In this document: piece by piece, positions 1-16,342 of the stretch
How the letters are laid out: the number at the start of each line of letters is the position of its first letter
How positions within the stretch are numbered: position 1 is the stretch's first letter
DNA from: Pseudolabrys sp.
GTDB lineage: Bacteria; Pseudomonadota; Alphaproteobacteria; Rhizobiales; Xanthobacteraceae
Reading direction: 5' to 3'
Assembly: GCA_030651965.1 (NCBI GenBank)
Contig: JAUSBQ010000370.1
Location: forward strand, 1 to 50,258
Length of the DNA: 50,258 nucleotides
Position numbers and translations under genes: made by a program
Notes under the pieces: model-generated
The model's input: only the letters and a program-made list of their open reading frames with translations
The model's database searches: none
What the model was told of the DNA's origin: nothing

Positions 1-2
1 CT

Positions 3-473
3 CCCGTTCAGTTTCGCCTCAACAATTCGGACCGCGCAACCTTTGCGGAAGCCGTCGACAATCTTCTGACGACTTTGCGCCGCGGGCTCAACGAGTTCGG
101 GCCGAAATACGGCTGCGGACAAGGCACATGTGGGGCCTGCACCGTGCTGATCGACGGTGAGCCGCAGCTCGCCTGCCTCACGTTGACGGTCGCCTGCGAG
201 GGCCGCCATGTGGAAACGGTGTCCGGCATGGCCGATGGGCCTAACATGCACCCGCTACAGAACGCCTTCATGGACAATTTCGCGGCGCAATGCGGCTTCT
301 GCACGCCCGGCATGCTGATGGCCGCGCGCGCGCTGCTCGACCGCAATCCGAACCCGAGCCGCGAAGATGTCGTCGAGGCGATCGCGGGAAATATCTGCCG
401 TTGCACCGGCTATGAGCCGATCATCAGCGCCATTCTCGCCGCGGCTGGCGCCCGCGGCGAGAGACGCGCCTGA
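3..473 (+). CDS. (2Fe-2S)-binding small subunit of a xanthine dehydrogenase-family molybdenum hydroxylase (CoxS/NdhS-like), 5'-partial
   Basis: GCGQGTCGAC...C and QCGFC...CRC iron-sulfur motifs; the frame stays open upstream of the listed TTG at 75 to the window edge (PVQFRLNNSDRATF...). Confidence 0.93.
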   Translation, partial: PVQFRLNNSDRATFAEAVDNLLTTLRRGLNEFGPKYGCGQGTCGACTVLIDGEPQLACLTLTVACEGRHVETVSGMADGPNMHPLQNAFMDNFAAQCGFCTPGMLMAARALLDRNPNPSREDVVEAIAGNICRCTGYEPIISAILAAAGARGERRA

Positions 474-484
474 AGGAGAACGCG

Positions 485-2227
485 ATGCTCGATATCCGGA
501 AGGACATCTTCGCCAATGAGCGCGACGACAATCTCAACGTCGTCGGCAAAGGCATCCAGCGCCAGGATATGCCGGGCCATGTTACCGGGCGTTCGCCCTT
601 CTTCGATGATCACGCCTTCGAGGGATTGCTGCACCTGAAGGTCGTGCGCAGCCCGCATCATCATGCCCGCATCCGCTCCATCGATGTCAGCGCGGCGGAG
701 CGCGCACCGGGCGTGAAGCGGATCCTGCGGGCGGCGGATGTGCCGGTGAACAAGAACACGCTGCTGAGCCTGATCAATTTCGGCAAGGACGACGAGCCCT
801 CGCTCGCACTCGACAAGGTCCATTACAAGGGTGAGCCTGTCGTCGCCATCATCGCCGACAGCGAGGCTGCCGCAATGGCCGCGCGCAGACTGGTGCGGAT
901 CGACTACGAAGCCCTGCCCCACGTATTCGACGTCGAGGAAGCGCTCAAGCCCGGTGCGCCCGTCGTCAACGAAACCTATCCGAACAATTATTTCGAATAT
1001 CACGACAAGTTCGACCATCAGAAGCTGCGCTTCGGCGACACGGAAAAGGCCTTCAAGTCGGCCGACATCGTGATCGAAGAGCGCTATCAGATGTCTCCCA
1101 TCGAGCATGCGCCGACCGAGACCAACGGCTCCATCGCCGCGCCGGAGCAAGACAACCGCTTCGTCGTGCATTCCTGCGCGCAGGGACTATTCTTCTCGCT
1201 GGGTACCGCGGCAAAGATCCTCGACATCGAATCCAACCGGCTGCATTTCATCGGCGGCACGGTGGGCGGCGGCTTCGGCGGCAAGGTGGATTCGCTCACC
1301 GAACCGCTGGCGATCCTCGGCGCGATGCTGACGGGGCGGCCCGTGCGCTACGTGCTCGATCGCGAGGAAGAGATGCTCTACGGCTCGCCGCGCGGCGCCG
1401 AGCGCATCTACGTCAAGGATGGCGTGATGCGCGACGGGCGCATCATCGCGCGCCACATCCGCTCCTATTTCGATGCCGGCGCCTATACCCGCCTCTCCTC
1501 CTATGCCGCCGTCAAATGCACGGCGCATGTCCCAGGCCCCTACTGGATCCCGAATGCCTCGTCGGACATCTACGTCGCCTACACCAACCGCTGCCCCTCC
1601 ACAGCGATGCGCGGCTTCGGCATCACGGCGGTCGATTTTGCGCTCGAAGTGCAAATGGACAAGCTGGCCCATGCCGTGAACATGGATCCGATGGAATTCC
1701 GCATCCTCAACGCCTATCGCGATAATGACATGAAGCCGCACCGGCGCGTGGCGAAGAACACGGCGCTGATCGAATGCGTGCAGGTGGCGGCAGAGAAAGC
1801 GCGCTGGCCGATCTCCGACAATGCCAAGCGGCAATCCTCGCTCGTGGGCGGCGGCGAAGGTGAGCGCGGGCAAATCCCCGCCACGCTCATCGACCAGCGC
1901 GGGCAGATCGGCCGCCCCGAGACACGCAACGCGCCATCGACGCAGACTTTGCCGGCCGGCACCACGCGCATCCCGCTGACCAAACAGCCCGAGCTTGAAG
2001 GCAGCCGCGACTCCCGCGCCGCAGCGCCGAACGTGCCGCGCTACGAACCGGCGCGTCCAATGGCGCAGCCGGCGGTGCAGGCCCCCGCGCCGCTCGCCCC
2101 GATGTCGCCCACTGCTCCACCGCCTCAGCCTGTTGCAGCGCCTCCCGGCGCCGCGCCCACGCCGGGCGCGACGCCGCAACACGGCGCGATGCGCTTCTCC
2201 TCCGTATTCGGCACAAGGAGGCGCTGA
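485..2227 (+). CDS. Molybdopterin-binding subunit, N-terminal half (NdhL-like large subunit), with a Pro/Ala-rich C-terminal extension
   Basis: RSPHHHARI, GGGFGGK and AMRGFG motifs; AAGGAG RBS upstream; lacks the C-terminal KGxGE half. Confidence 0.92.
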   Translation: MLDIRKDIFANERDDNLNVVGKGIQRQDMPGHVTGRSPFFDDHAFEGLLHLKVVRSPHHHARIRSIDVSAAERAPGVKRILRAADVPVNKNTLLSLINFGKDDEPSLALDKVHYKGEPVVAIIADSEAAAMAARRLVRIDYEALPHVFDVEEALKPGAPVVNETYPNNYFEYHDKFDHQKLRFGDTEKAFKSADIVIEERYQMSPIEHAPTETNGSIAAPEQDNRFVVHSCAQGLFFSLGTAAKILDIESNRLHFIGGTVGGGFGGKVDSLTEPLAILGAMLTGRPVRYVLDREEEMLYGSPRGAERIYVKDGVMRDGRIIARHIRSYFDAGAYTRLSSYAAVKCTAHVPGPYWIPNASSDIYVAYTNRCPSTAMRGFGITAVDFALEVQMDKLAHAVNMDPMEFRILNAYRDNDMKPHRRVAKNTALIECVQVAAEKARWPISDNAKRQSSLVGGGEGERGQIPATLIDQRGQIGRPETRNAPSTQTLPAGTTRIPLTKQPELEGSRDSRAAAPNVPRYEPARPMAQPAVQAPAPLAPMSPTAPPPQPVAAPPGAAPTPGATPQHGAMRFSSVFGTRRR

Positions 2228-2228
2228 C

Positions 2229-3257
2229 ATGGCACGTCACAAAGGCCGCGGCATGGCCTCCATCAACTATCCCATCGGCATGAATCTCGGAGGCGACCCC
2301 AGCCAGGCGCTGATCCACTCCAATCCAGATGGCAAGTTCACCGTGGCGCTGTCCGCGATCGATCTCGGCCAGGGCATGAAACAGGTCACGCGGCAGGTGG
2401 CAGCGGAAACGCTCGGCGTGCCGATCGAGGATGTCTATGTCGATACCGCCGACAGCGATACCGGCCCGCACGACATGGGCTCTTTCGCCTCGCGCGGCAC
2501 GCATCGCATGGGCAACGCGGTGATCGCGGCAGCGCGCGAGGCACGCGGCGTTCTGCTGGAAGCGGCGGCGGAGGAGCTTGAGGTCAATGCCGCCGATCTG
2601 GTCACCGACGGGCGCGGCAATATCCATGTCCGCGGCGCTCCTTCCCGTACGATCACCGTGCGCGCGACCGCGCAGGCCGCACAGTTCAAGCAGGGCAAGA
2701 CCATCGCCGGGCGCGGCATTTTTCTCGTGCCGCTCTCTACGGTCGATGCGGAAACCGGAGAGATGAACCCGAACACCGCCTTCGCCCATGCCTGCCTCGT
2801 CGCGGATGTCGAGGTGGATGACGAAACCGGCGAAGTGACATTGCTCGGCATCACGAGCGCGTATGAGCTAGGCCGTGCGCTCAACCCGAAAATGGTGGAG
2901 CAACAGCTCGTCGGCGGCGCCTGGATGGGCCAGAGCCATGCGCTGTTCGAAACGCCGGAACCCTATTATCCAAATCCCGATCACGGTCCGCGCGATTTCA
3001 ACGAGTACCTGATGCCCGGGCCTGGCGATATCGCGCCCTATTCGGTGAGCGTGCTGGAGCGCCCCGCACCGGATGGCCCCTTCGGTGGCAAGGGGCCCGG
3101 CGAGATGTGCGCCAATCCGGTGCTGCCGGCGGTGGCCAACGCAGTGTTTAACGCGGTCGGTGTCCGGGTGGACGAACTTCCGATAACGCCCGAGAAAGTG
3201 CTGCGCGGCATCCGCGCGATTGGCGGCGCGCAACCGCAAGCAAGACGGGGCGGCTGA
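2229..3257 (+). CDS. Molybdopterin-binding subunit, C-terminal half (NdhM-like medium subunit)
   Basis: ATG at 2229 after AAGGAG; DLGQG, SFASRGT, VEQQLVGG and catalytic KGPGE motifs. Confidence 0.92.
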   Translation: MARHKGRGMASINYPIGMNLGGDPSQALIHSNPDGKFTVALSAIDLGQGMKQVTRQVAAETLGVPIEDVYVDTADSDTGPHDMGSFASRGTHRMGNAVIAAAREARGVLLEAAAEELEVNAADLVTDGRGNIHVRGAPSRTITVRATAQAAQFKQGKTIAGRGIFLVPLSTVDAETGEMNPNTAFAHACLVADVEVDDETGEVTLLGITSAYELGRALNPKMVEQQLVGGAWMGQSHALFETPEPYYPNPDHGPRDFNEYLMPGPGDIAPYSVSVLERPAPDGPFGGKGPGEMCANPVLPAVANAVFNAVGVRVDELPITPEKVLRGIRAIGGAQPQARRGG

Positions 3258-3259
3258 CC

Positions 3260-4144
3260 ATGGCGCTTCGTACCACCATCGCCGGCATTTCGAGCCCCGA
3301 AGCGCTCGCGGAAGCGCTCAAGTCGGCGTTGTATCTCGCGGATGACGGCATCGCGACCGCCGGCTATCTGTCGCTTGCCCTCGGCAAACCGCTGTTGCTG
3401 GAAGGCGCGCCGGGCGTCGGCAAAACCGAGGCCGCGAAGGCGATCGCCGGCATTCTCGGACGGCAGTTGATCCGGCTGCAATGTTTCGAGGGGATCGACG
3501 CCGCGGCAGCGCTCTACGAATGGAATTATCCCCGCCAGATGCTGGCGATCCGGCAGGCGCAGGACGGAACCAACACCGATATCTACCGCGATGAATTCCT
3601 GATCGAGCGACCGATGCTCGCGGCGCTGCGCCGGCCGGAATCGACCGTGCTGCTCATCGACGAAATCGACCGTTCCGACCATGAGTTCGAAGCATTCCTG
3701 CTCGAATTCCTCTCCGACTTCTCGATTTCGATCCCCGAGCGCGGCACGCTGCGCGCGGCGGAACGCCCGGTGGTGATCCTTACCTCGAACCGCACGCGCG
3801 ACCTGCATGAAGCGCTGAGGCGGCGTTGCGTCTATCATTACATTGCCTATCCCGATCCGGCGCGCGAGGCCGAGATCATCATGCTGCGCTCATCCTCCGT
3901 CGCGGAAAGCACGGCGCGCGCGGTGGTGGCGGCTGTCGGCATCCTGCGCAACGAGCCGCTCTCGAAACCTCCCGGCGTTGCCGAGGCGGTGGACTGGGCA
4001 GAGGCCGCGACGGCGCTCGCCCTCACCGGCGCATCCTGGCCTGAAGCGTTCCGCCGTTCCATCGGCACGGCAATCAAGGATGAGGAAGACCTCGCCCATC
4101 TGCGCCCCCGCCTCGCGCAATTCATCCCGGGAATGGCGGCATGA
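3260..4144 (+). CDS. MoxR-family AAA+ ATPase (CoxD-like)
   Basis: Walker A GAPGVGKT, Walker B LLIDE, LYEWNYPRQML and EALRRRC motifs. Confidence 0.93.
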   Translation: MALRTTIAGISSPEALAEALKSALYLADDGIATAGYLSLALGKPLLLEGAPGVGKTEAAKAIAGILGRQLIRLQCFEGIDAAAALYEWNYPRQMLAIRQAQDGTNTDIYRDEFLIERPMLAALRRPESTVLLIDEIDRSDHEFEAFLLEFLSDFSISIPERGTLRAAERPVVILTSNRTRDLHEALRRRCVYHYIAYPDPAREAEIIMLRSSSVAESTARAVVAAVGILRNEPLSKPPGVAEAVDWAEAATALALTGASWPEAFRRSIGTAIKDEEDLAHLRPRLAQFIPGMAA

Positions 4145-5265
4145 GCGTGAACACGAGCGCGAAGGTGCCCGGTGCGGTGCGTCCGCTGATCGCCTTTCCG
4201 GCCGTGCTGCGCGGGCACGGCTTCATGATCGCGCCCGAGCAGACGGTGAGTTTCCTTCAGGCGGTCGAATTGCTGGGACCCCGGACGATCGAGCATGTGC
4301 GCAAGGCGGCGGTTGCGACGCTTGCGCCTCACCCCGAGCAGCGTGCGACCTTTGACGCTCTGTTCGACATGCATTTCCTTGGCGCTATCGGCGAGCCGGG
4401 CGAGGATAGCTTCGAGCCAGATGACGAGATGCAGGTGCAGGACGACATCGGCACCGAAGAGATTGTGATCGGCGACGAGGTCAACGAAACCGGCCAGGTC
4501 GCCACGGGCGCGGAAGCCCTCGCGATCCGCGCTTTGCGCCCACCCGACGATGCGGACACCCTGCGACGTTTTGGCGATGCGCTACCGGCTGCCCTGCCCC
4601 ACCGACGCGGCTATCGCAACAGAGCGGCGCGGCGCGGCAAGGGCATCGACCTGGCCCGGAGCCTGCGGGCGGCAATGCGGAACGAAGGCGAGGTGATGGA
4701 CCTCAAGCGGCTGCGGCGCGCAACGCGCCCCCGCCCTGTTCTTCTATTGATCGACGTGTCCGGCTCGATGAAGCAGCGCAGCGATGTGCATCTCGCGCTG
4801 GCGCATGAAATCGTCCATGCGATGCCGCGCGTTGAAGTTTTCACCTTCGGCACGCGGCTCACCCGCCTCACCCGCGCCTTGCGGCTCAAGAACCGTGAGC
4901 AGGCGCTTGCTGAGGCCTCCGGCCTTGTATCCGACTGGGATGGCGGCACCCGCATCGGCGATGCGCTTGAAGCGTTCCTCGCCGTGCCGCGCTTTGCCGG
5001 CTACGCCCGCGGCGCCAACGTTATCGTGCTTTCCGACGGGCTGGAGCGCGGCGATCCCTCCACGATGATCCGCGCCGTCCACCGTCTCGCGGCGCGCGCC
5101 TTCCGCATCGACTGGTTCACGCCGCTTGCCATCGATCCCGCGTACCGGCCGGAGACCGAAGCGCTGCGCGCGATCCGTCCGCTGCTCGCTTCGCTCGGCG
5201 ATGCCAGTTCCACATCCCGGCTGTGCCGGGCGATTCTTGCCATCGGGGAGACACGAGCAGCATGA
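4141..5265 (+). CDS. VWA-domain protein (CoxE-like)
   Basis: MIDAS motif DVSGSM, WDGGTRIG, LSDGLERGD; ATGA overlap with the AAA+ gene. Confidence 0.92.
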   Translation: MSVNTSAKVPGAVRPLIAFPAVLRGHGFMIAPEQTVSFLQAVELLGPRTIEHVRKAAVATLAPHPEQRATFDALFDMHFLGAIGEPGEDSFEPDDEMQVQDDIGTEEIVIGDEVNETGQVATGAEALAIRALRPPDDADTLRRFGDALPAALPHRRGYRNRAARRGKGIDLARSLRAAMRNEGEVMDLKRLRRATRPRPVLLLIDVSGSMKQRSDVHLALAHEIVHAMPRVEVFTFGTRLTRLTRALRLKNREQALAEASGLVSDWDGGTRIGDALEAFLAVPRFAGYARGANVIVLSDGLERGDPSTMIRAVHRLAARAFRIDWFTPLAIDPAYRPETEALRAIRPLLASLGDASSTSRLCRAILAIGETRAA

Positions 5266-6143
5266 CGGGCCTGGTTGACGCGCATTTCCATATCTGGCGG
5301 CAGGCCGATCTTCCCTGGTTGATGGGTCCGATGCAGCCGCGCATTTTTGGGCCTTATGAGCCGATCCGGCGCGATTATCCGGTCGAGGAGTATCTCGCCG
5401 ATTGCCGGCCGGAAGGTTTTACCGAAGCCGTTTACGTGCAGGCGAACTGGGCGCCGGGACGCGCGCTGGACGAGGTTCGGTTCGTGGCGGAGTCGAGCGA
5501 GCGCGCCGGCTTTCCGATTGCGATCGTCGCCTATGCCGACATGCTCGCCGCCGACATCCGGCCGCAACTCGATGCCTTGGCCGCCGAGCCCTCCGTGCGC
5601 GGCGTCCGGATGCAGATCCATTGGCATGAGAACCCGCTCTATCGATTTGCGCAGACGCCCGATCTGGCGCGCGATCCGGTCCTGCAACGCAACGTCGCGC
5701 GGCTCGTAGACTATGGCTGGAGTTTCGATCTTCAGGTCTTCGCCAGCCAGATGGACGGCGCGGCCAACCTGGCCAAAGCCTGCCCGAAAGTGACCTTCGT
5801 GCTCCAGCACGCCGGCATGCTGGAGGATCTGACGCCGGCAGGCATCGCAGCGTGGCGCGAGGGCATGACGCGCCTCGCCGCCTGCCCCAATATCGTCAGC
5901 AAGCTGTCGGGCCTCGGCACGTTCCTCCGGCGCAACGATCCGGCGCATATCGCCTTCATTGCCGGCGAAACGCTGAAGCTGTTCGGCGCCGAGAGCTGCC
6001 TGTTCGGCTCGAACTTTCCCATCGAGAAGCTGTGGACCACCTATGCCGCGCTTGTCGGCGCGCATCGCGCCGCCGTCCCGACGGCCGATCATGAACACGT
6101 ATTCAACAAAACCGCGCGCCGGGTCTACCGGCTCGGACAATAG
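5262..6143 (+). CDS. Amidohydrolase_2 (COG3618 lactonase-like) protein
   Basis: N-terminal DAHFHIW, SFDLQ, LQHAG and FGSNFP motifs; ATGA overlap places the start at 5262. Confidence 0.88.
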   Translation: MTGLVDAHFHIWRQADLPWLMGPMQPRIFGPYEPIRRDYPVEEYLADCRPEGFTEAVYVQANWAPGRALDEVRFVAESSERAGFPIAIVAYADMLAADIRPQLDALAAEPSVRGVRMQIHWHENPLYRFAQTPDLARDPVLQRNVARLVDYGWSFDLQVFASQMDGAANLAKACPKVTFVLQHAGMLEDLTPAGIAAWREGMTRLAACPNIVSKLSGLGTFLRRNDPAHIAFIAGETLKLFGAESCLFGSNFPIEKLWTTYAALVGAHRAAVPTADHEHVFNKTARRVYRLGQ

Positions 6144-6161
6144 AACGAAGGGGAGGCTCTC

Positions 6162-7010
6162 ATGGCTTTGGAAATCAAGATTCTCGACTATGGCGATATC
6201 GAGCTTGAGTCGAGCTTCCTCGTGCTCGGGCGCGACTGCGGCCGCGTACGCCGCGTCAATACCTTTGGCTTTCTGGTCCTCGGCGGCCCCTGGCCCATCG
6301 TGATCGACACCGGCTATCGGCACAACCAGATCATGGAGAGCCTCGGCATGCGCGGCCTCCAGTTCCACGAAAACATGATCGAGAACCAGCTCGCCAAATT
6401 CGGCGTGCGCATGGGCGACGTGCGCTACGTTCTGCACACGCACCTGCATATCGACCACGCCGGCAAGGACGAACTGTTCCCGATGAACACCACCGTGATC
6501 ATCAACCGGCGCGAATTGGAATATTCGGTCTCGGGCCTGATGCATCCGCAATATCCCGCGCCCGACATCAAGCACCTCATCGACCGGCTGCACACCAGGG
6601 ACGCCTTGCGCCTGGAGGACCTCGAACTCTCCGGGCCGATCGAACTGTTCCCCGGCTGCACCATGGAAGTGGCCGGCGCGCATACCGAAGGCTCGATGAA
6701 TGTCCACGTCGACACGACGGAAGGCCGCGCCACTATCTGCGGCGACGTCATCTACGACTTCAACGACCAGATCGTGAACCCCTTCCACGAACTTCACGCC
6801 AACGAGCCGCGCGTCACCGGCAATCACGGCGTCTCCAAGCGCGAGGAAAAGGCCGCGATCAAGAAGCTGCTCTCCAGCTCGAAATTCCTGCTGCCGGTGC
6901 ATGACAAGCCCGCGAAGATTGCCGGCGGGCAAGTGGTCGGGCGAATGGACATGGCCGTGCCGGGCCCGGTGGTTCAAAGCCTGCCGGTGCGCAACTGGTT
7001 CGCCATGTAG
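6162..7010 (+). CDS. Metallo-beta-lactamase-fold hydrolase (N-acyl homoserine lactonase family)
   Basis: IDTG, THLHIDHAG (HxHxDH), GAHTEG, CGD and PVHD metal ligands; GGGAGG RBS. Confidence 0.88.
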   Translation: MALEIKILDYGDIELESSFLVLGRDCGRVRRVNTFGFLVLGGPWPIVIDTGYRHNQIMESLGMRGLQFHENMIENQLAKFGVRMGDVRYVLHTHLHIDHAGKDELFPMNTTVIINRRELEYSVSGLMHPQYPAPDIKHLIDRLHTRDALRLEDLELSGPIELFPGCTMEVAGAHTEGSMNVHVDTTEGRATICGDVIYDFNDQIVNPFHELHANEPRVTGNHGVSKREEKAAIKKLLSSSKFLLPVHDKPAKIAGGQVVGRMDMAVPGPVVQSLPVRNWFAM

Positions 7011-7038
7011 GGAATGAACCCGGACGGAGGATTTTGCC

Positions 7039-8634
7039 ATGACAACGCATGTCGCCGTCCGGCTGGGCTTCGCCGATCTCATCGATCTGTGGGCGCCGGT
7101 GCGCCAGATCGGCACTGGATTCCAGTTCACCGAAGGCCCGATCTGGCATCCGCGCGAAGGCTATTTGCTGTTCTCCGACATGCCCGGCGATGTGCGCCGC
7201 CGATACGATGCATCCGGCATTCGGGAGGTGATGAAACCGGCGAACAAGTGCAACGACATGACCTACGATGCCGAGCTCAACCTCATCGTCTGCGAGCACG
7301 CGACTTCCACCCTGGTGCGCGAGCGCCCGGACGGGCGGCGCGAGGTCCTTGCCGCGCAGTTCGAGGGGATGGAGCTCAACAGCCCCAATGATGTCTGCAT
7401 CAAATCCGACGGCTCGATCTATTTCTCCGATCCCTGGTATGGCCGCATGCCCGTCTACGGCGTCGAACGGCCGCGCCAGCTTGGCTTTCAGGGCGTCTAT
7501 CGTGTGCCGCCGGGCGGTGGAAAACCCCAATTGCTGGTGGACCGCTATCTGTTCGAGCAGCCGAACGGGCTGTGTTTCTCGCCGGATGAGAAGCTGCTCT
7601 ACATCAACGATACGGTGCAGCAGTTGATCCGGGTCTTTGAGGTCCAGCCCGATGGCACGCTGGCTGGAGGGCGGGTTCTTGCCTCGGGCATTTATTCGCC
7701 CATCGAGCCGGGCGTGCCGGACGGCATGAAATGCGATGCGCAAGGCAATGTCTGGGTCTGCGCTCCCGGTGGCGTCTGGGTCTATGCGCCGGATGGCGCG
7801 CTGATCGGCAAGGTGCGCGTGCCCGAACTCGTCGGGAACCTGACCTGGGGCGGCCCGGATTTTCGCACGCTGTTTCTCACGGCGACTCACTCAGTCTACG
7901 CGGTGGAGACCAGAATCGGCCCGCGCATCGAACCCTACATGCGGCAAGCGGCGGCGCGAAGCGGGCCGACACCGCAGGCTGGCGCCAGCATCGCCCGCAA
8001 CGGCGCGATGAAAGCGGCCCCCGGCTATACGCTCGAACCGTCGCGCTGCGCGCTCATCATCCAGGACATGCAGAACGATGTGGTGATGGAAGGCGGTGCC
8101 TTCGCCGCTTCCGGCTCACCGATCCATTGCCGGGAGCAGAATGCGATTGCCAACGCTTCCCGGCTGGCCGCGGCCGCGCGCGCGCGCGGCATTCCCGTCA
8201 TTCACGTCTGGTTCGTGGTTGAAGCCGGCTGCCCCGGCGTGACGATGAATGCGCCGCTTTTCGAAGGCCTTGCGGATACACACGCGATGGTGCGCGGAAG
8301 CTGGGGTTCAGCTCCCGCGCCGGGCCTTGAGGCCCAGCCGGGCGACCATATCGTCGAGAAGCAGCGCATGAGCGCCTGGGAGGGAACGCGGCTTGAAACC
8401 GTGCTGAAAGCCCTCAAGCGCGACATCGTTATCGTCACCGGGGCGTGGACGAACATGTCGATCGAGCACACCTCCCGCACCGGAGCGGACAAGGGGTACT
8501 ACATGGTGGTGCCGGAGGATTGCTGTTCGACGATGAATGCCGAATGGCACACGGCTTCGGTGAATTACGCCCTCCAGAACGTGGCCGTGGTGACGGATGC
8601 CGACGCCTTGGTCGGATCCTGGCAGCCTGGGTAA
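7039..8634 (+). CDS. Fusion of an SMP-30/gluconolactonase domain and an isochorismatase-like (cysteine hydrolase fold) domain
   Basis: FTEGP, NSPND, QPNG and PDG beta-propeller motifs in the N-terminal ~300 aa; QDMQND, EKQRMSAW and GAWTNMSIEHT in the C-terminal domain; GGAGGA RBS. Confidence 0.9.
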   Translation: MTTHVAVRLGFADLIDLWAPVRQIGTGFQFTEGPIWHPREGYLLFSDMPGDVRRRYDASGIREVMKPANKCNDMTYDAELNLIVCEHATSTLVRERPDGRREVLAAQFEGMELNSPNDVCIKSDGSIYFSDPWYGRMPVYGVERPRQLGFQGVYRVPPGGGKPQLLVDRYLFEQPNGLCFSPDEKLLYINDTVQQLIRVFEVQPDGTLAGGRVLASGIYSPIEPGVPDGMKCDAQGNVWVCAPGGVWVYAPDGALIGKVRVPELVGNLTWGGPDFRTLFLTATHSVYAVETRIGPRIEPYMRQAAARSGPTPQAGASIARNGAMKAAPGYTLEPSRCALIIQDMQNDVVMEGGAFAASGSPIHCREQNAIANASRLAAAARARGIPVIHVWFVVEAGCPGVTMNAPLFEGLADTHAMVRGSWGSAPAPGLEAQPGDHIVEKQRMSAWEGTRLETVLKALKRDIVIVTGAWTNMSIEHTSRTGADKGYYMVVPEDCCSTMNAEWHTASVNYALQNVAVVTDADALVGSWQPG

Positions 8635-8699: not shown

Positions 8700-9575
8700 T
8701 CAATGGGGCTTTGGATAGAGCGACACAACGGCCGTCGCATCCAGTTCGCTTTTACCGCCGGCCACGAGCAACCGAAAAAGCGTGAGCGCCTGAGAAGCCA
8801 TCGGCATCGCCAGATGCTGGTCGCGCGCCGCCGCTTGCAGCATTTCGAGATCCTTCAAGACCTGCCGGGCGAAGCCGCGCGGCGCGAAGTCCTCGTCGAT
8901 CATCTGAGGAAAGGCGGCGGCTAACAAGTTGGAACCCGCATGCCCTGTCTTGAGAGCCTCGGGAATTTTCCGTGCGTCGACGCCGTAGGATTGCGCCAGC
9001 CGCAACGCCTCGGCGAGAACGCAGTAATTGGTCAGGACCAGCGTCTGATTGACCAGCTTGGTTGCCTGTCCGGTACCGACCGGACCCATATGCGTCATCT
9101 TGCCGAGACCGCGCATGATGTCCGTGATCGCAGCGATCGCCGCATCCGTCCCGCCAGCCATGATCGCAAGCGAACCGGCGGCGGCCGCGCCCGGCCCGCC
9201 GGAAACCGGCGCATCGACAAACATCATGCCGCGCGCGGCGAGCGCCGCGGCAATGCCCTTGGTCGCTTCGAGCTCAGTGGTCGAATGGTCGACAAACACC
9301 TTGCCGTCCAATTTTCCGGCGGCAAGCGCGCCGCGCGGGCCGATCGCGGCATCTTCGACCGCCGCCGTGTTGATGACGCAGGCTAGGATCACATCACACG
9401 CCTCGACAACCTCGGCCGCGCTTTTTGCCGGCTTGACACCCCATGCCGCCGCCGCCGCGACCTTGGCAGGATCGATGTCGAAACCGACAACGCCATGCCC
9501 CAACTCGGCGAGCCTGCGGGTGAACCCCCGCCCCATCAAACCGAGCCCGATAAAGCCGATCGGTGTTGCCGTCAT
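8700..9575 (-). CDS. NAD(P)-dependent beta-hydroxyacid dehydrogenase (3-hydroxyisobutyrate/2-hydroxy-3-oxopropionate reductase family)
   Basis: GFIGLGLMG, DAPVSGG, KLVNQ and KDL motifs. Confidence 0.92.
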   Translation of the reverse strand: MTATPIGFIGLGLMGRGFTRRLAELGHGVVGFDIDPAKVAAAAAWGVKPAKSAAEVVEACDVILACVINTAAVEDAAIGPRGALAAGKLDGKVFVDHSTTELEATKGIAAALAARGMMFVDAPVSGGPGAAAAGSLAIMAGGTDAAIAAITDIMRGLGKMTHMGPVGTGQATKLVNQTLVLTNYCVLAEALRLAQSYGVDARKIPEALKTGHAGSNLLAAAFPQMIDEDFAPRGFARQVLKDLEMLQAAARDQHLAMPMASQALTLFRLLVAGGKSELDATAVVSLYPKPH

Positions 9576-10312
9576 CGCGATTGCTCCGTCGCCAGTGGCG
9601 CCAATGTTTTCGGATCGATGCCGAGCGAGTTCGCCAATCTGATCCAGGACTCATCCAGATGCCGCTGCAAGACCGCGTTGGCGGCCGCAGCATCGCGCCG
9701 CAGCAACGCTGCGATCAACTCCTCGTGGTCGGCGACCGCCCGCGCCCAGTTCTCCGGAATGTCGTTGCCGCGAAAGCGGCTGCGCTTCATCCTCGCATGC
9801 AGACGCGCATGCATCGCCCGCAAAATGTCGTTGCCGGCCAGACGCACGATTTCGAGATGGATATCCTGGTTCAGATGGAAATATTCCAGCTTTTCGCGGC
9901 GCCGATAGTGCGCCATCATCCGTTCGTGCATCGTCTGCAAGATCGCAAGCTCACCATCGGTCGCGTTCACGCAGGCGAGTTCGCCGGCAAACGCCTCGAG
10001 CCGGGCGATGACGGCGAGCATGGCGCGGGCTTCGCGCGGGCCCAGCCGGCTGACCACCGCTCCGCGATTCGGCAAGATTTCGACGAGACCCTCCGCCGCC
10101 AGCACCTTGAAAGCTTCACGCAACGGCGTCCGCGACACCTGTAGCTGATCGCACAGTTCGCGCTCGATAATGCGGCTGCCTTCCTGCAATTGCCCTTCCA
10201 CGATCAGGTCGCGCAGCCGCGACGTGACCGCCTCGTGCAAGGAACGCCATTCAAGCGGGCCGCCGGCGTCCACCGGCCGGGTCATCGTCAAATCTGGAGA
10301 AGCCACAGTCAT
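9572..10312 (-). CDS. GntR-family (FCD domain) transcriptional regulator
   Basis: ERELCDQLQVSRTPLREA wHTH; FCD domain with DHEELI. Confidence 0.92.
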   Translation of the reverse strand: MTVASPDLTMTRPVDAGGPLEWRSLHEAVTSRLRDLIVEGQLQEGSRIIERELCDQLQVSRTPLREAFKVLAAEGLVEILPNRGAVVSRLGPREARAMLAVIARLEAFAGELACVNATDGELAILQTMHERMMAHYRRREKLEYFHLNQDIHLEIVRLAGNDILRAMHARLHARMKRSRFRGNDIPENWARAVADHEELIAALLRRDAAAANAVLQRHLDESWIRLANSLGIDPKTLAPLATEQSR

Positions 10313-10328
10313 GTCAAGCGCCGGTCCA

Positions 10329-11609
10329 TTATCGAAGCATCTGGGGAATATACAGCACCAGGGCCGGGAACAACGTAAGGATTGCGAGCGTGATCAGCAA
10401 TGGCGGGTAAAACGGCAGCATGGCCCGGAGCAGTTGGACCATCGAGATCCCGGTCATGCTCGACAGCAGAAACAAAGACAACCCAAAAGGCGGCGTGATC
10501 GTGCCGACCATCAGATTGAACACGACGACGATGCCAAGGTGAATGGGGTCGACGCCGACGGCGACGACAGCGGGCGCGACAATCGGAACAAGCAGAAGAG
10601 TGGCGGTCGTCGAGTCGACGAACATACCGGCGATGAAGAAAATCGCGTTCACGATCACGAGCAAGACCAGCGGGTTGGTCGAGATATCGCGGAACCAGCC
10701 GGCGAATTCCTGCGGCACCTGCTCCACCGCCAGAATCCAGCCGAACATCGCGGCAGCCGCGACAATGACCAGGATCGCGGCGGTGCCGCGCACGGTGGCG
10801 ATCGCGGCATCGCGGATAAATCCCCAGTTCATGTCGCGGTAGTAAAACGCGCCGACGAAAATTACATAGAGGACACAAATCGCCGATGCCTCGGTCGGCG
10901 TGAAGCTGCCCGATAGCATGCCGCCGACCAGCACAACAGGCGCGAACAACGCCGGCGCGGCCGGCCAGAACGCATTCCACAGACCGCGCGCGGTTGGCCA
11001 ACTGGCGGCACGCGGCAATTCGGATTTAACGGCGACAATGGCGGTCGCGATCATCAGCATCGCCACGCAAATCAGCGCCGGGATGATGCCGGCAACGAGC
11101 AATTGCAGCGCCGAAATCGACGTGATCGACGCATATATGATAAGCGGAATCGACGGCGGGAAGATCGGCCCGACAATGGCCGATGCGCCGGTCACCGCCG
11201 CGGCGAACGGCACCGTGAAACCACGATCCTTCATCGCCTTGATTTCGATACGGCCGAGACCGCCGACGTCGGCCAATGCCGCGCCCGAGACTCCGGAAAA
11301 GATCAGACTGGCGACGATGTTGACCTGTGCAAGCCCGCCATATAGCCGCCCGACCAGCACGTCGGCGAAGTGGAACAGCTTCTGGGTAATGCCGGCCGAG
11401 TTCATCAGGTTGCCGACGAAAATGAAGACCGGCACCGCGACCAACGGAAACGAATCCATCGAATAGAGCACGCGTTGCGCGATGGTCGCGAGTGGAATCC
11501 CCTCCCAGGCGATATAAGCAATCGACGGAATTAAAATCGCGAAGACCACCGGAAAGCCGAGAACGAACAAGCCAAAAAAGGCGACAACGACGGTGATACC
11601 AAGGTCCAT
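10329..11609 (-). CDS. dctM: TRAP transporter large permease
   Basis: SGVSGAALAD, IFPPSIPLIIY and ITPPFG motifs; highly hydrophobic. Confidence 0.94.
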   Translation of the reverse strand: MDLGITVVVAFFGLFVLGFPVVFAILIPSIAYIAWEGIPLATIAQRVLYSMDSFPLVAVPVFIFVGNLMNSAGITQKLFHFADVLVGRLYGGLAQVNIVASLIFSGVSGAALADVGGLGRIEIKAMKDRGFTVPFAAAVTGASAIVGPIFPPSIPLIIYASITSISALQLLVAGIIPALICVAMLMIATAIVAVKSELPRAASWPTARGLWNAFWPAAPALFAPVVLVGGMLSGSFTPTEASAICVLYVIFVGAFYYRDMNWGFIRDAAIATVRGTAAILVIVAAAAMFGWILAVEQVPQEFAGWFRDISTNPLVLLVIVNAIFFIAGMFVDSTTATLLLVPIVAPAVVAVGVDPIHLGIVVVFNLMVGTITPPFGLSLFLLSSMTGISMVQLLRAMLPFYPPLLITLAILTLFPALVLYIPQMLR

Positions 11610-11630
11610 GGGTGCCTCAAATTCTCGGCG

Positions 11631-12119
11631 TCAAATGACCGGGCTTCCGCCGCCGACCGGCGGGTCGGCACGGCGCAGGCCGATCCAGAGGCAGCCGACG
11701 GCGGCGACGGCAAAGCCAAGCAGCATGGGCGCGGCAAAGACCCAGAACGGAATATCGAGCATCGGCGTGCGCGTGCCGAAATTGCGTAGAATCGACAGCG
11801 CACCCGACCAGACGATGACCAGCAGCGCACCGCCGCTTGCAATCAGGATGACGCGCTCCAGCCCCAGGCGCAGCCGCTTCGGCAGCAAATCGACAAACTC
11901 CGCCAGCCGGATATGTTCGTTGGTCGAGATCAAGAGCGGCGTACCGAGAAATACCAGAATGATCAAACCCCAGCGCGTCGATTCCTCGAGCCCCATCAGC
12001 GGGGCATTGAAAACGCCGCGCAAAACCACCTGGATCGACGGCAGCAAAACCAGCGCGAACAGCGCCAGCATTGCGATGACGCCAAGTATGCGCTCCGCCC
12101 AGAACCAGATTCGTGCCAT
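11631..12119 (-). CDS. dctQ: TRAP transporter small permease
   Basis: About four TM segments, EE...W and EHIR motifs; lies between dctP and dctM. Confidence 0.88.
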   Translation of the reverse strand: MARIWFWAERILGVIAMLALFALVLLPSIQVVLRGVFNAPLMGLEESTRWGLIILVFLGTPLLISTNEHIRLAEFVDLLPKRLRLGLERVILIASGGALLVIVWSGALSILRNFGTRTPMLDIPFWVFAAPMLLGFAVAAVGCLWIGLRRADPPVGGGSPVI

Positions 12120-12146
12120 GTCGTCCCCTCTTCGCCGCCAGAAGAA

Positions 12147-12177
12147 CGGGCGCCCGCTTCTGCAAAGCGGGCGCCCG
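12147..12177 (-). terminator. 13-bp stem-loop between dctP and dctQ (attenuator or mRNA stabiliser)
   Basis: CGGGCGCCCGCTT / AAGCGGGCGCCCG perfect inverted repeat with a 5-nt loop, followed by TTCTTCT on the minus strand. Confidence 0.65.
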
Positions 12178-12197
12178 CGGCTTTAAGCCCGAAGGCG

Positions 12198-13208
12198 TCA
12201 GCTCTTAACTTCCTTCAGCCTGGCGATATAGGGAGCCCAGGTCGGGTAGTCGGTGACGATCTGTTTGCCGACCGAATCCCGGAAAGCCTTTAGATCGAGC
12301 CCGCTCTTCTCGTCGATAATGGTCACGCCGTTCTTCTTCAACGTAGCAATTTCATCGGCTTCGGCATCCTTGGCCCATTTCATCGAGCGCTGGCCCATCT
12401 CGGCCAAACATTCCTGCATGATCTTGCGGTCGGCGGCCGGAATGCTCTCCCAGCTCTTTTCGTTGATGAAAGTGGCCAGCACGGATTCCATGTGGCTCGT
12501 CATCATCACGAACTTGTTGGCCTCCCACATCTTGCGGGCGATGATGTTGTTCAGAGGATTTTCCTGGCCGTCGACAAGACCGGTCATCAGCGCTGGCATG
12601 ATTTCCGAAATCTCGACCGGAGTCGGAATCGCGCCCATGCCCTTGATCATCGAATTCCAGAGCGGCACCGGCACCGAGCGGAATTTCTTGCCCTGCATGT
12701 CTTTGGGTGAATACACCGCGTAGCGGGCCGAGAGCTGTCGCGCGCCGCGATAGAAATTGCCGATGATCCGCACATTGCCCTTGGCGACCAGCTTCTTGTT
12801 GATCTCCTGCAGCACCGGCGAGGTTTCCTCGTTGGTGGCGCGCATCGCCTGTTCTGGGCTGGTGAAAAGGAAAGGCGCATTGAACACGGCCACGTCCGGA
12901 TCGATGCGGTCGAGCGACGAGAAGTCGTGATGGGCCATTTGAATGGAGCCGATGCGCACACCGTCGATCATCTCGCTCAGATTGCCGAGTTGCGAGCCCG
13001 GGAATACGCGAATTTCGACGCGGCCTTGCGTTTTTTCACCGATGAGCTTCGCGAGTTCTGCGGCGTAGCGGGTCTGGGTTTCCCCTTCGGCGCCCACATG
13101 GGCATAGCGCAGGGTGATCTTTTGCTGGGCTGAAGCCGAGCCAACCGAAATTATGGCCGCAGCCAAGGCAAAGCCGAGCAGCGCGCTGAGGCGCGGTAGC
13201 GTCTTCAT
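12198..13208 (-). CDS. dctP: TRAP transporter substrate-binding protein
   Basis: Signal peptide, FPGSQLG, GKKFRS (conserved carboxylate-binding Arg region) and VDGQENP. Confidence 0.94.
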   Translation of the reverse strand: MKTLPRLSALLGFALAAAIISVGSASAQQKITLRYAHVGAEGETQTRYAAELAKLIGEKTQGRVEIRVFPGSQLGNLSEMIDGVRIGSIQMAHHDFSSLDRIDPDVAVFNAPFLFTSPEQAMRATNEETSPVLQEINKKLVAKGNVRIIGNFYRGARQLSARYAVYSPKDMQGKKFRSVPVPLWNSMIKGMGAIPTPVEISEIMPALMTGLVDGQENPLNNIIARKMWEANKFVMMTSHMESVLATFINEKSWESIPAADRKIMQECLAEMGQRSMKWAKDAEADEIATLKKNGVTIIDEKSGLDLKAFRDSVGKQIVTDYPTWAPYIARLKEVKS

Positions 13209-13269
13209 GGCATCCTCCCTAAAGCATGTTGAGGGTTAGCCCCTCTGCCAAAATTGTCTTCCTTTTTAA

Positions 13270-13290
13270 GATTGAATGCAATATGCAATC
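13270..13290. promoter_or_regulatory. Imperfect palindrome, candidate GntR operator in the divergent dctP/pdxA-like promoter
   Basis: GATTGAAT-GCAAT-ATGCAATC (7/8 matching arms) in AT-rich intergenic DNA. Confidence 0.5.
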
Positions 13291-13328
13291 GGCACGGTGC
13301 CCCGGTTCTCGCCCGTGGAGGGAAAATC

Positions 13329-14348
13329 ATGTCGACCATGGTCCCAAGAATATGCATCGCAATGGGCGATCCGGCGGGCGTAAGTCCCGAATTGCTGGTC
13401 AAACTGTTGGCCCGCGAGGATCTGATGGGCCTCGCCTCGATTGCCGTCATTGGCGACCGTCGCGTATTGGCCGCTGGGGAAAAGGTCGCCGGCAAGCGGA
13501 TCGACATCCCTTTGGTTTCCCTGGCGGAAGCCGATCGGGCTGTTCCGGGCCGCCCTGTGTTCATCGATCTGGGCCATCTCGATCCCGCGACCATTGAACC
13601 GGGGCAATCGAGCGCCGCCGGCGGCACCTTCGCCATGCGCAATTTTCGCGAAGCGTTACTGCTCGGCAAAGCCGGCCGCATTGACGGCATCATGTTCACG
13701 CCGTTCAACAAGCTCGCCCTGAAACTGGCCGGCAACCCGTACCCCGACGAAATCCGATGGGCTGCCGACATTCTCGACTGGAAGGGCTCCTGCAGCGAAT
13801 ACAATCGTCTCGACGATCTGTGGAACGCGCGCGTAACCTCGCACGAGCCGATGCGTGAGGTCGCCGATCTTCTCACGCGCGAACGCGTTGGCGCGGCGAT
13901 CGACGCAACGGATGACATGCTACGTGGTACCGGCATTGCGCGGCCGCGGATCGCGGTCGCCGGCTACAATCCGCACGCCGGGGAAGGCGGCGTCTTCGGC
14001 CGCGAAGAAATCGACGTCATCGCGCCGGCGGTCGAAGAGGCAAAGCGCCGCAATCTTGCCGTCGACGGCCCCTTCCCTGCCGATACGGTGTGGATCAAGG
14101 CGCGCCGTGGCGACTACGACGCTGTGTTGACGATGTATCACGACCAAGGCCAGATTGCGCTCAAGCTCCTCGGCTTCGAACGTGGTGTCACCATTCTTGG
14201 CGGTCTGCCGGTTCCTATTGCAACGCCGGCGCATGGCACGGCCTATGATATTGTCGGACGCGGCATTGCCGATCCGTCCGCCACCATCAAGGCGTTCGAA
14301 ACGCTGCTGATGTTGACCACCATGAAGAAGGCGCGCGCCGCGGCTTAG
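13329..14348 (+). CDS. pdxA: PdxA-family oxidative decarboxylase/dehydrogenase, atypical (probably not the B6-biosynthetic enzyme)
   Basis: MGDPAGVSPE, NPHAGEGG, GPFPADT, MYHDQG and HGTAYDI motifs; ATG at 13329 after a GGAGG RBS. Confidence 0.85.
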   Translation: MSTMVPRICIAMGDPAGVSPELLVKLLAREDLMGLASIAVIGDRRVLAAGEKVAGKRIDIPLVSLAEADRAVPGRPVFIDLGHLDPATIEPGQSSAAGGTFAMRNFREALLLGKAGRIDGIMFTPFNKLALKLAGNPYPDEIRWAADILDWKGSCSEYNRLDDLWNARVTSHEPMREVADLLTRERVGAAIDATDDMLRGTGIARPRIAVAGYNPHAGEGGVFGREEIDVIAPAVEEAKRRNLAVDGPFPADTVWIKARRGDYDAVLTMYHDQGQIALKLLGFERGVTILGGLPVPIATPAHGTAYDIVGRGIADPSATIKAFETLLMLTTMKKARAAA

Positions 14349-14389
14349 CGAAGGCGGACGGCAGGCCGATCGACGAAAGGAACCTGCCA

Positions 14390-15316
14390 GTGCCGCAAGC
14401 GGACGCAAAAGTCGATGTCGCGCAATTCCCGATCGTCGATGCGCATCAACACTTCTGGGACCTGAAGCACAATTATCTCCCGTGGCTGTGCGAGGAGCCA
14501 CCGATACCATTTCGATATGGCGACTACGCCGCGATCCGGAAAGACTATCTGCCTGACGATTATCGGCACGACAGCGCCAAATACCGCATCGTTAAGACGG
14601 TTTATATGGAAGCGGAATGGGATCGCCGCGATCCGGCGGCGGAAACGCGCTGGGTCGAAAAGCTCAACGCGGCAACGGGCCTGCCAACCGCCTGTATCGG
14701 TCATGCCGAACCGGATCGTGCCGATATTGCCGACGTCCTGACGGCGCACGCTCAAAGCGCGCTGATCCGCGGGATCCGTCACAAGCCAAAGGCAGCCCTC
14801 AAGCCGCAGGATGCGACGCGAGGCGCCACCGGTTCGATGGACGATCCGCGATGGCGCGCAGGATATGCTTTGCTGGAACGCTTCGGCTTTTCCTACGATC
14901 TGCAGACGCCGTGGTGGCATCTCGACGCGGCGGCCGCACTCGCCGCTGACTTTCCGCATACTCAGATCATCATCAATCACACGGGATTGCCGTCGGACCG
15001 CACGGATGAAGGCATGCATGCCTGGCGGCAAGCACTTGAGAGCGTGTCCCAGCAACCCAATGTCGCCCTCAAGATATCCGGGATCGGGCGCCCCAACCTG
15101 CCCTGGACCGTTGCAGCCAACGGCCCGATCATCCGCGATGCGATCTCGATATTCGGGGTTGATCGCTGCATGTTTGCCAGCAATTTTCCGGTCGACAGTC
15201 TGGTTGGAAGCTTTGATACGATCTACGGCGGCTTCTTTGAATCCGTTGCCGGCCGTTCGCTGCCCGATCAGCGCAAACTCTTTTGCGACAATGCAATGCG
15301 GATTTACCGGCTTTAG
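14390..15316 (+). CDS. Amidohydrolase_2 (COG3618 lactonase-like) protein
   Basis: DAHQHFWD, SYDLQ, INHTG and FASNFP motifs; GTG start. Confidence 0.88.
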   Translation: MPQADAKVDVAQFPIVDAHQHFWDLKHNYLPWLCEEPPIPFRYGDYAAIRKDYLPDDYRHDSAKYRIVKTVYMEAEWDRRDPAAETRWVEKLNAATGLPTACIGHAEPDRADIADVLTAHAQSALIRGIRHKPKAALKPQDATRGATGSMDDPRWRAGYALLERFGFSYDLQTPWWHLDAAAALAADFPHTQIIINHTGLPSDRTDEGMHAWRQALESVSQQPNVALKISGIGRPNLPWTVAANGPIIRDAISIFGVDRCMFASNFPVDSLVGSFDTIYGGFFESVAGRSLPDQRKLFCDNAMRIYRL

Positions 15317-15335
15317 GCCCGACGTGTCACGCAAC

Positions 15336-16142
15336 TCAGTTTGCGTTATTGGGCATCACATCGAGGCGCACAGCGATGCCCTCAAGCTCTCGGCTCGGCG
15401 CGGGATAGCGCTTCATCACCAGAGGATCGTGACCGGGAACGATATGCGCGGGCGTCGGCGCAGCCGCGATCAAAGCCTCGAATCCATCCAGCATCTCGCC
15501 GACATGAAACGACGTCACGAAGGGTCTCCGGCTCTCGAGATTTTCGTAGAAATGCGTCACGTCGGAAGCCACCACGACCCAGCCGCGCCTGGTATGGACG
15601 CGGACGAACTGCAGACCGGCGGAATGGCCGCCGACGGCATGCAGCGAAATTCCCGGCGCAAGATCGACATCGCCGAAATGGAACTGGACGCGCTGCGCGA
15701 AATTCAGCCGCACGATGCCGCAGATATCGTCGACTTCGAAAGAATGCGCCAGCCGCGGATAACTCATGTAGTGGCCGGTGGCGTAGTGGATCTCGGACTC
15801 CTGCAAATGAAACCGGGCCTGCGGAAAACGATGAAAGTTTCCGACATGGTCGTAATGCAGATGCGTCAGAATGACATCATTCACCTCCTCAGCGTCGACG
15901 TTCAATAGCTTCAGCGCATCGATCGGGCACCGGAGAAACGTCCGCTTGCGCTGCGCCGCAACGTCCGCCGTGAAGCCGCAGTCGATGACGAATGTCCGCT
16001 CGTCGGAAACGGCAACCCAGAGGAAGTAGTCCATCGGCATCGGGCCGTCATGGGGATCGCCACCGATGAAATGATCGCGCCGCCGCGCCTCCCGCATCGC
16101 GTAGCGGACCGCGTACAATTCAAATTCGGGCAACATGGACAT
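15336..16142 (-). CDS. MBL-fold hydrolase (N-acyl homoserine lactonase family)
   Basis: THLHYDHVG, GGHSAG, ASD and PGHD; start at 16142 (or 16136) after an AAGGA RBS. Confidence 0.88.
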   Translation of the reverse strand: MSMLPEFELYAVRYAMREARRRDHFIGGDPHDGPMPMDYFLWVAVSDERTFVIDCGFTADVAAQRKRTFLRCPIDALKLLNVDAEEVNDVILTHLHYDHVGNFHRFPQARFHLQESEIHYATGHYMSYPRLAHSFEVDDICGIVRLNFAQRVQFHFGDVDLAPGISLHAVGGHSAGLQFVRVHTRRGWVVVASDVTHFYENLESRRPFVTSFHVGEMLDGFEALIAAAPTPAHIVPGHDPLVMKRYPAPSRELEGIAVRLDVMPNNAN

Positions 16143-16287
16143 GACGCGACGCTTCCTTATGCCGTGAGGCGCTTCCCTGGGACGTGGTCTAACCGCAACG
16201 GGCCGGTTTGTAGAAGCCTTCGATAGCAACAAAATTGGCAAATCTGTTATAGATAAACTGCATATCGCTTGGCCGGCTGCTTCGCGT

Positions 16288-16309
16288 TACAATAATATAA
16301 TAATACAAT
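16288..16309 (+). promoter_or_regulatory. Three 8-bp-period direct repeats (TACAAT-TATAAT-TACAAT); candidate operator overlapping a -10 element
   Basis: TACAAT AA TATAAT AA TACAAT in an AT-rich divergent intergenic region. Confidence 0.55.
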
Positions 16310-16342
16310 AGTGGCGCCGGCCTCGAGCCGGGCACACGCGTG

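Follow-up and report, generated by a model that had tools for sequence, protein, structure and literature searches.

The window analysed here is a 50,258-nucleotide stretch of Pseudolabrys sp. DNA that forms the entire contig C93 of its source genome (G000; 468 contigs, 90% complete). Its first 8,634 nucleotides carry the rear half of a co-oriented and conserved gene set, built around a split molybdenum (Mo) hydroxylase and three hydrolase genes, that probably encodes an undescribed breakdown pathway for a small ring molecule. The window starts at the contig edge, inside the gene of the 2Fe-2S subunit (S; 3–473, Pfam Fer2/Fer2_2, cysteines 38/43/46/58 and 97/100/132/134), which has lost its 5′-end and is about 4 residues short of its 160-aa orthologues. 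The Mo-binding subunit is encoded in two pieces, a large subunit (L; 485–2227, 580 aa, Pfam Ald_Xan_dh_C and MoCoBD_1) corresponding to the N-terminal half and a medium subunit (M; 2229–3257, 342 aa, Pfam MoCoBD_2) corresponding to the C-terminal half. A CoxD/MoxR-type AAA ATPase (3260–4144, Pfam AAA/AAA_5), likely a maturation chaperone, is followed by a CoxE-like vWA protein (4141–5265, Pfam VWA_CoxE, E 2.8e-50), likely its partner. The last three genes encode a COG3618-like amidohydrolase_2 (AH2; 5262–6143, Pfam Amidohydro_2), a metallo-β-lactamase (MBL)-fold hydrolase of the N-acyl-homoserine lactone (AHL)-/4-pyridoxo-lactonase type (6162–7010, Pfam Lactamase_B) and a fusion of an SMP-30 domain with an isochorismatase-like domain (7039–8634, Pfam SGL and Isochorismatase). 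All eight open reading frames (ORFs) lie in a single orientation on the plus strand, with intergenic gaps of 11, 1, 2, −4, −4, 18 and 28 nt, and the positions, families, order and tight or overlapping spacing given in an earlier sequence-only reading were confirmed. Every Pfam family scored above its cut-off, and the GC content at third codon positions (0.77–0.86) is of the coding type. A promoter and terminator scan gave signal no better than chance level.

Together with an FAD subunit (F) located on another contig, S, L and M appear from their domains to form a four-subunit enzyme of the xanthine-oxidase family, with Mo-binding domains, a two-cluster 2Fe-2S subunit, an FAD subunit assigned by Pfam and the catalytic-site motifs. 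L contains GGFGGKVD, Lys344 and the active-site loop AMRGFG (L374–379), and M contains Tyr14 and the catalytic Glu292 (GPGE). The loop is invariant in orthologues from both of the surveys described below (64/64 anchored on MBL, 26/26 anchored on M), as is Glu292 among the orthologues. The residue after GGFGGK, a purine-binding Glu, is replaced by Val in L, so xanthine is an unlikely substrate. The loop of form II CO dehydrogenase-type enzymes is AYRGAGR. PMC8305194 gives the loops of nicotinate, xanthine and CO dehydrogenases, with AYRCSF for the last. As L carries AMRGFG rather than AYxCSFR or AYRGAGR, the earlier exclusion of CO dehydrogenase stands, and the enzyme is a xanthine-oxidase-family hydroxylase. 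The three HcrABC subunit models of 4-hydroxybenzoyl-CoA reductase all scored below cut-off, with no CoA ligase among the conserved neighbours, and L, M and S fell below every equivalog cut-off in NCBIfam.

The best Protein Data Bank (PDB) matches are the two Mo subunits of nicotinate dehydrogenase (NDH) from Eubacterium barkeri, 3HRD_A for L (E 8.7e-59) and 3HRD_B for M (E 2e-46), and the Mo subunit is split at the identical point. M Tyr14 aligns with NdhM Tyr13 and is present in 15/15 family members versus 19/86 other relatives. L Lys344 aligns with NdhL Arg319, at a position that we take to bind the acid group of the substrate, and Lys is kept in 26/26 orthologues. NdhM Tyr13 has been modelled as binding the ring nitrogen of nicotinate (PMC5746545). 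The identical split, the shared best PDB matches and the retained Tyr could suggest that the cluster is the proteobacterial orthologue of NDH, an explanation to which we give hardly any credence. A midpoint-rooted tree was built with 36 of 101 M-region sequences, NdhM being represented by the NdhM-like proxy P0313 (307 bits to 3HRD_B versus 162 for M); in it, the 14 family members formed one side of a 100/100 branch. The proxy was placed outside, and forced grouping was rejected (approximately unbiased test, p-AU 0.0003). In L, Leu and Lys stand in for NdhL Tyr312 and Arg319, the conserved neighbours include no nicotinate lower-pathway genes, and the selenium genes yqeB and yqeC each passed the cut-off in 0/5 genomes (G009 has a single YqeB match below the cut-off, and G000 is 90% complete). 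Judged by its sequences, the Mo enzyme is thus an uncharacterised clade with 100/100 support. L also matches 18 other contigs of G000 at ≤38% identity, so this genome is rich in Mo hydroxylases, and contig C269 may hold another split one. Genome G015 has two L copies of equal score (C3:9730-11106 and 2478015-2479391), reflecting a duplication or an assembly overlap.

Orthologue searches located the front half of the gene set on two further contigs of the same genome, C211 and C356. C211 carries the FAD subunit gene, two SRPBCC genes, an 844-aa flotillin gene (L081:2031-4565), a PF09370 TIM barrel and part of a UPF0261 domain. C356 carries a binding protein, an Fe-dependent alcohol dehydrogenase (Fe-ADH)-like gene, an AraC regulator and ABC permeases. 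C356, C211 and the window are colinear with a genome of the same genus that holds the gene set on one contig (G009), and by this comparison the assembly lacks about 44 nt at the junction of C211 with the window and about 1.5 kb at that of C356 with C211. The gene order is identical on a Yoonia plasmid. The FAD subunit, regulator and transporter presumed to lie upstream were therefore found there, in G000 and in its colinear relatives. The fusion of UPF0261 with an ABC ATPase, the TIM barrel, the giant flotillin and the two SRPBCC proteins lie outside the window and so had no place in the earlier reading. LivF (the ABC ATPase) and UPF0261 form a single ORF in 18/18 full clusters, and the binding protein is of the HAAT type and not the sugar type, as judged by Pfam and PDB matches. 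The conserved genes of the unit as a whole include neither an oxygenase nor a CoA ligase, so that the absence of a ring-cleaving oxygenase, first remarked upon for the visible part, holds beyond the window.

Flotillin size varies from 759 to 1166 aa across the full clusters. L carries a Pro/Ala/Arg-rich tail of 125 aa (window 1850–2227); L measures 525–641 aa in full clusters and 444–455 aa where the cluster is of the sister or bare type (454–455 in the sister clade). Since the tail is present in the former and missing in the latter, it co-occurs with the flotillin version of the cluster. The Fe-ADH-like gene, found in 9/18 full clusters, precedes AraC (L139:3978-5027 on C356; L082:7332-8387) and has lost its NAD and metal motifs, likewise in most copies. 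Its product may be a regulatory pseudo-enzyme.

Two surveys addressed the conservation of the set. An MBL-anchored pattern search of GTDB genomes found at least 554 relatives among 600 matches, and the best 80 loci were counted in full, including short loci cut by contig ends. SMP-30 is present in 79/80, CoxE in 77/80, an AH2 match in 75/80 and M in 71/80 of these loci; with such counts the association is not due to chance. M-anchored sampling gave matches in 16/400 genomes of the phylum, 5/400 of the class and 10/201 of one other order, which amount to 28 distinct genomes; flanks were read for 26, omitting G773 and G788. The full set occurs in 18 of the 26 genomes, a sister clade of six has AraC-SRPBCC-F-S-L-M-CoxD-CoxE-AH2 only, and two have bare F-S-L-M with no linked hydrolase. 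The CoxD-like and CoxE-like genes are each linked in 24/26, with the CoxD-like gene adjoining M. Within the 18 full clusters, AH2 was found in 17, SMP-30/isochorismatase in 17 and MBL in 16 (one contig ends inside CoxE), the binding protein in 18 and AraC in 17; the AH2 of G786 was a match of 139 residues only. Because related genomes are not independent, all these counts are descriptive. A Flavodoxin_2 (FMN reductase-like) gene follows the fusion gene in 27/80 MBL loci (e.g., L049:3949-4575).

The deep core of the unit is F-S-L-M-CoxD-CoxE-AH2, as found in Nonomuraea. The expanded form adds the ABC importer with its ATPase-UPF0261 protein, the TIM barrel, the giant flotillin, a second SRPBCC protein, MBL and SMP-30/isochorismatase. 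AH2 is accordingly the core hydrolase, and the other two hydrolase genes are confined to the expanded version. In Salinigranum, F-S-L-M lies with a cyclase-family gene and an SRPBCC gene. Overall the clade spans Hyphomicrobiales, further alphaproteobacterial orders, one actinomycete and one haloarchaeon, with M identity of 77–88% across orders. Carriers named in the records include Bradyrhizobium, Bosea, Xanthobacter tagetidis and Aquabacter, presence is patchy (1/12 congeners carries the cluster), and a single 90% cluster of M has 3,474 members.

One or more hydrolase genes adjoin orthologous Mo subunits in 23/26 genomes, and one of the remaining three is cut by a contig end. The expectation that the hydrolases are conserved beside orthologous Mo subunits thus holds clade-wide for AH2, whereas for the complete trio it holds in the expanded form only. 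AH2 is missing between CoxE and MBL in 6/77 loci and in G009, and MBL is missing in G384. That either can be lost suggests overlapping, partly interchangeable roles. The earlier proposal of stepwise opening by three lactonases is sound in that the hydrolases are conserved, but three obligatory sequential lactonases would be an overstatement, with only AH2 in the deep core and AH2 or MBL lost in places.

The three hydrolase folds differ in how closely they follow their characterised relatives. The structural model of AH2 (pLDDT 95) has as its best fold match the L-fucono-1,5-lactonase 4DLF (TM score 0.80), with 26% sequence identity and 92 bits against a model cut-off of 400. In COG3618 enzymes an Asp at the end of strand 8 is the catalytic base. 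AH2 has His8, His10 and His183, and its Asn251 aligns with the Asp of 4DLF; the resulting GSNFP motif occurs in 67/70 and 23/23 orthologues (three with no motif match). The LigI mutants D248A and D248N are among the fold matches. Two AH2 orthologues (L208 and L211, 60–61%) occur with no Mo enzyme, beside caprolactamase/hydantoinase-like A/B genes and a DapA-family gene, and L211 additionally has a LeuC-like gene nearby. The MBL protein has the intact HxHxDH...H...DxxY...H metal motif of AHL-lactonase-type enzymes, with HTHLHIDH in 80/80 best loci, and scored below every NCBIfam lactonase cut-off. The SMP-30 domain matches gluconolactonases and is a six-bladed propeller with the E-N-N-D metal-ligand set of that family (Glu32, Asn117, Asn176, Asp228). 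Its residue 73 (window 7255–7257) is Asp (KCND), where 68/68 motif-bearing orthologues and G009 have Gly (KCNG), which is a private variant or an assembly error. Isochorismatase-like cysteine hydrolases use an Asp-Lys-Cys triad. In the fusion, Asp343 and Lys441 are present and Ser474 takes the Cys position (TNMS), as in 73/73 and 17/17 orthologues; Ser474 was assigned by motif, the fusion model being good for the propeller and of low confidence for the isochorismatase domain. The description of three lactonase folds therefore holds as a statement about folds. Of the four hydrolase domains, two lack the usual catalytic residue, and for these at least any activity is no more than putative. Atlas searches returned family-level names only, and a cluster look-up for locus names in model strains gave just generic ones.

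The lactonase relatives could also be taken at face value. The substrate might be an oxygen heterocycle (a furan, pyran or sugar-derived cyclic hemiacetal) oxidised to a lactone, with the three folds acting as true lactonases of overlapping ring-size preference; we regard this as a possible but doubtful alternative. It would explain why the nearest characterised homologues are L-fuconolactonase, AHL/4-pyridoxo-lactonases and gluconolactonases. Some copies have an aldehyde dehydrogenase (ALDH) most like 2-oxoglutarate-semialdehyde dehydrogenase (488 bits, cut-off 770), some have SDR-FAH-SDR downstream, with an FAH resembling 2,4-didehydro-3-deoxy-L-rhamnonate hydrolase (412 bits, cut-off 500), and a Burkholderia MBL homologue (59–60%) lies near Fe-ADH and ALDH genes. 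However, a linked ALDH occurs in only 2/18 full clusters and FAH in 2/10 regions checked, the Fe-ADH lacks NAD and metal motifs in most copies, and the binding protein is not of the sugar type. The isochorismatase-like domain and the NdhM-like Tyr would also be left with no explanation.

A further clue to the substrate comes from the UPF0261 domain. MarK is a UPF0261 protein that phosphorylates phenolic aromatics (PMC12624787). The domain in the cluster retains the DTK ATP motif of MarK (D14-T15-K16) and its phenol-site residues G195, H219 and H304, with the motifs present in 17–18 of 18 genomes. In Ensifer, the 3-hydroxypyridine dehydrogenase HpdA requires a dikinase pair as well as an SRPBCC protein as separate subunit, and its authors detected no phosphorylated intermediate (bioRxiv 2020.01.08.898148). 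The HpdA system is therefore a precedent for the combination of a kinase, an SRPBCC protein and a Mo enzyme. On a Thermomicrobium roseum plasmid (L146), UPF0261 and TIM genes are grouped with genes for a cyclase-family amidase, FAH, a PEP-synthase-type dikinase pair and a Mo enzyme that is not split and differs from the one described here (37% to L).

The retained phenol site would also suit a carbocyclic substrate, namely a phenolic aldehyde, ketone or acid phosphorylated by the MarK-like domain, with the Mo enzyme acting as an aldehyde oxidase or a 4-hydroxybenzoyl-CoA-reductase-like dehydroxylase. Among NCBIfam models, M and S indeed score best with 4-hydroxybenzoyl-CoA reductase, although far below cut-off, and the PDB matches of the binding protein include 4EY3/4EVQ, which we take to be binders of benzoate derivatives. 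This explanation is nevertheless decidedly unlikely: the conserved set has no CoA ligase, ring-reducing or ring-cleaving enzyme, the FAD subunit reaches just 57 bits on the HcrB model, and the hydrolases would have no role.

The reading that we prefer, with about an even chance of being right, is a water-dependent hydroxylation of a polar N-heterocycle, probably primed by a kinase, followed by hydrolytic opening by AH2 or MBL with no oxygenase. From gene content, motifs and conservation we infer all of its chemical steps. The HAAT-type ABC importer would take up the compound and AraC would induce the operon. The UPF0261 domain might then O-phosphorylate a ring hydroxyl in a MarK-like manner, for trapping or activation. 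The Mo enzyme would add water-derived oxygen to the carbon beside the ring nitrogen, so that a lactam, imide or lactone, no longer aromatic, would result; the electrons would flow from 2Fe-2S to FAD. The ring would be opened by AH2 or MBL, which may be partly interchangeable, and the SMP-30 and Ser-isochorismatase domains with the TIM barrel could strip leftover amide, ester or phosphate groups to leave a 2-oxo acid. The substrate is likely an N-heterocycle carrying a hydroxyl or carboxyl group, as suggested by the closeness of L/M to NdhL/NdhM, by Tyr14 and Lys344, by the haloarchaeal orthologue beside a cyclase-family protein and by AH2 orthologues beside caprolactamase/hydantoinase-like genes.

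Several points weigh against this proposal. A pyridine hydroxylated once stays aromatic and is not opened by a hydrolase; the model can therefore hold only for a five-membered ring or if two hydroxylations take place. With their non-standard catalytic residues, AH2 and the isochorismatase-like domain could turn out not to be hydrolases at all; for each of the three hydrolase folds, moreover, the closest characterised relatives are lactonases and not lactamases. Tyr14 is weak evidence, being also found in 19 unrelated relatives. With 327 bits for plant Tm-1 and 193 bits for MarK, the UPF0261 domain is nearer to the former, and it does not retain MarK His348. Lastly, no UPF0261 adjoins the Mo enzyme in Nonomuraea, in Salinigranum or in any of the six genomes of the sister clade, and phosphorylation cannot therefore be clade-wide.

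A more elaborate version of the N-heterocycle pathway is conceivable, if unlikely as a whole. In it, an ABC importer ATPase with its own MarK-like kinase would, on a giant-flotillin scaffold, phosphorylate the heterocycle on entry, trapping it in the manner of a phosphotransferase system, and hand it over to the split Mo hydroxylase. The ring would be dismantled by water alone, by hydrolases of which two would use new catalytic residues (Asn for Asp, Ser for Cys). If true, this would represent an oxygen-independent route of heterocycle breakdown, widespread in soil and marine alphaproteobacteria, and would reveal what the Tm-1 domain pair does chemically in nature. Mo hydroxylation followed by hydrolysis is already known from the barbiturate route and the anaerobic indoleacetate route.

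Rather than growth, the unit might serve to turn over or detoxify a signal, a cofactor or a damaged metabolite, with flotillin holding a membrane-bound scavenging complex. The AHL-lactonase-like MBL, the conservation of M at 77–88% across orders and the absence of a conserved lower pathway to central metabolism would fit such a function. It is very unlikely, as the dedicated ABC importer and AraC regulator, almost constant in the full clusters, are typical of nutrient use, and the presence of the cluster among congeners is patchy.

A literature search that covered few subscription journals, so that unpublished status is unproven, found no description of the enzyme clade, gene set or substrate; within the same coverage, no characterised pathway orthologous to the cluster was found, in line with the sequence-only reading. 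As the clade is wide and its M cluster large, many soil, root and water bacteria likely use a compound for which the search turned up no pathway. Discovery of the substrate would give a function to a new Mo hydroxylase subfamily, the isochorismatase-like domain with Ser, the amidohydrolase with Asn, and the UPF0261/TIM-barrel pair that is fused in plants as Tm-1-like proteins. Culturable carriers make the pathway testable, and the sister module AraC-SRPBCC-FSLM-CoxDE-AH2 is a minimal unit, small enough for expression.

Downstream of the unit, window 8700–17383 holds a separate cluster with HIBADH-like, GntR, TRAP transporter and PdxA-like dehydrogenase genes. Its GntR/TRAP/PdxA-like genes were rejected as part of the unit, as they occur in at most 5 of the best 80 loci, mostly with low identity; in one locus (L046), GntR, DctP and PdxA adjoin the main cluster. 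The separate cluster includes a second amidohydrolase_2 (14390–15316; 31–33% to AH2, likewise with SNFP) and two further MBL hydrolases (15336–16241 and 16565–17383). A 334-aa ORF with no Pfam match at 1e-5 (17470–18474) lies ahead of an ABC ATPase and permease. The region 21149–46180 contains acyl-CoA/β-oxidation-type genes, an MmgE/PrpD gene, a branched-chain ABC system and an acetamidase/formamidase gene.

Among known systems, NdhFSLM of E. barkeri (PDB 3HRD) shares with the cluster the F-S-L-M order, the four subunits, the identical Mo split, the AxRGFG loop, the catalytic Glu and Tyr13 of M. The nicotinate pathway of E. barkeri continues by a reductase/enamidase route. The cluster enzyme, unlike NDH, has Lys for Arg319 and Leu for Tyr312, belongs to a separate clade with no selenium accessory genes found, and is surrounded by CoxD/E, SRPBCC and hydrolase genes instead of that route. 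The subunit layout of NDH follows PMC10331938. HpdA1-4 with orf9/orf10 of Ensifer adhaerens HP1, compared by its published description and not by sequence, likewise combines a Mo hydroxylase, a separate SRPBCC protein, a required kinase-like partner and an adjoining ABC importer; its Mo subunit is one gene, however, its kinase is a PEP-synthase-type dikinase pair, and its product is cleaved by a maleamate route that is absent in the cluster. The picolinate (pic) cluster was set aside as a match, its four-component enzyme being a Rieske oxygenase.

MarK (PDB 9MPY) shares the DTK motif and G195/H219/H304 with the cluster domain, which differs in its fusion to an ABC ATPase (18/18), its lack of His348 and its Mo hydroxylase neighbours in place of acetophenone carboxylase. 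In tomato Tm-1, the UPF0261 and TIM-barrel domains that adjoin in the cluster are fused. The COG3618 lactonases (4DLF, LigI) resemble AH2 in fold and His ligands but have the Asp of GSDWP where AH2 has Asn. Finally, the cox cluster of aerobic CO dehydrogenase has CoxD- and CoxE-like genes adjoining its Mo enzyme, as here, whereas the present enzyme has a split subunit, AMRGFG instead of AYRCSF, and 164 bits against a cut-off of 991.

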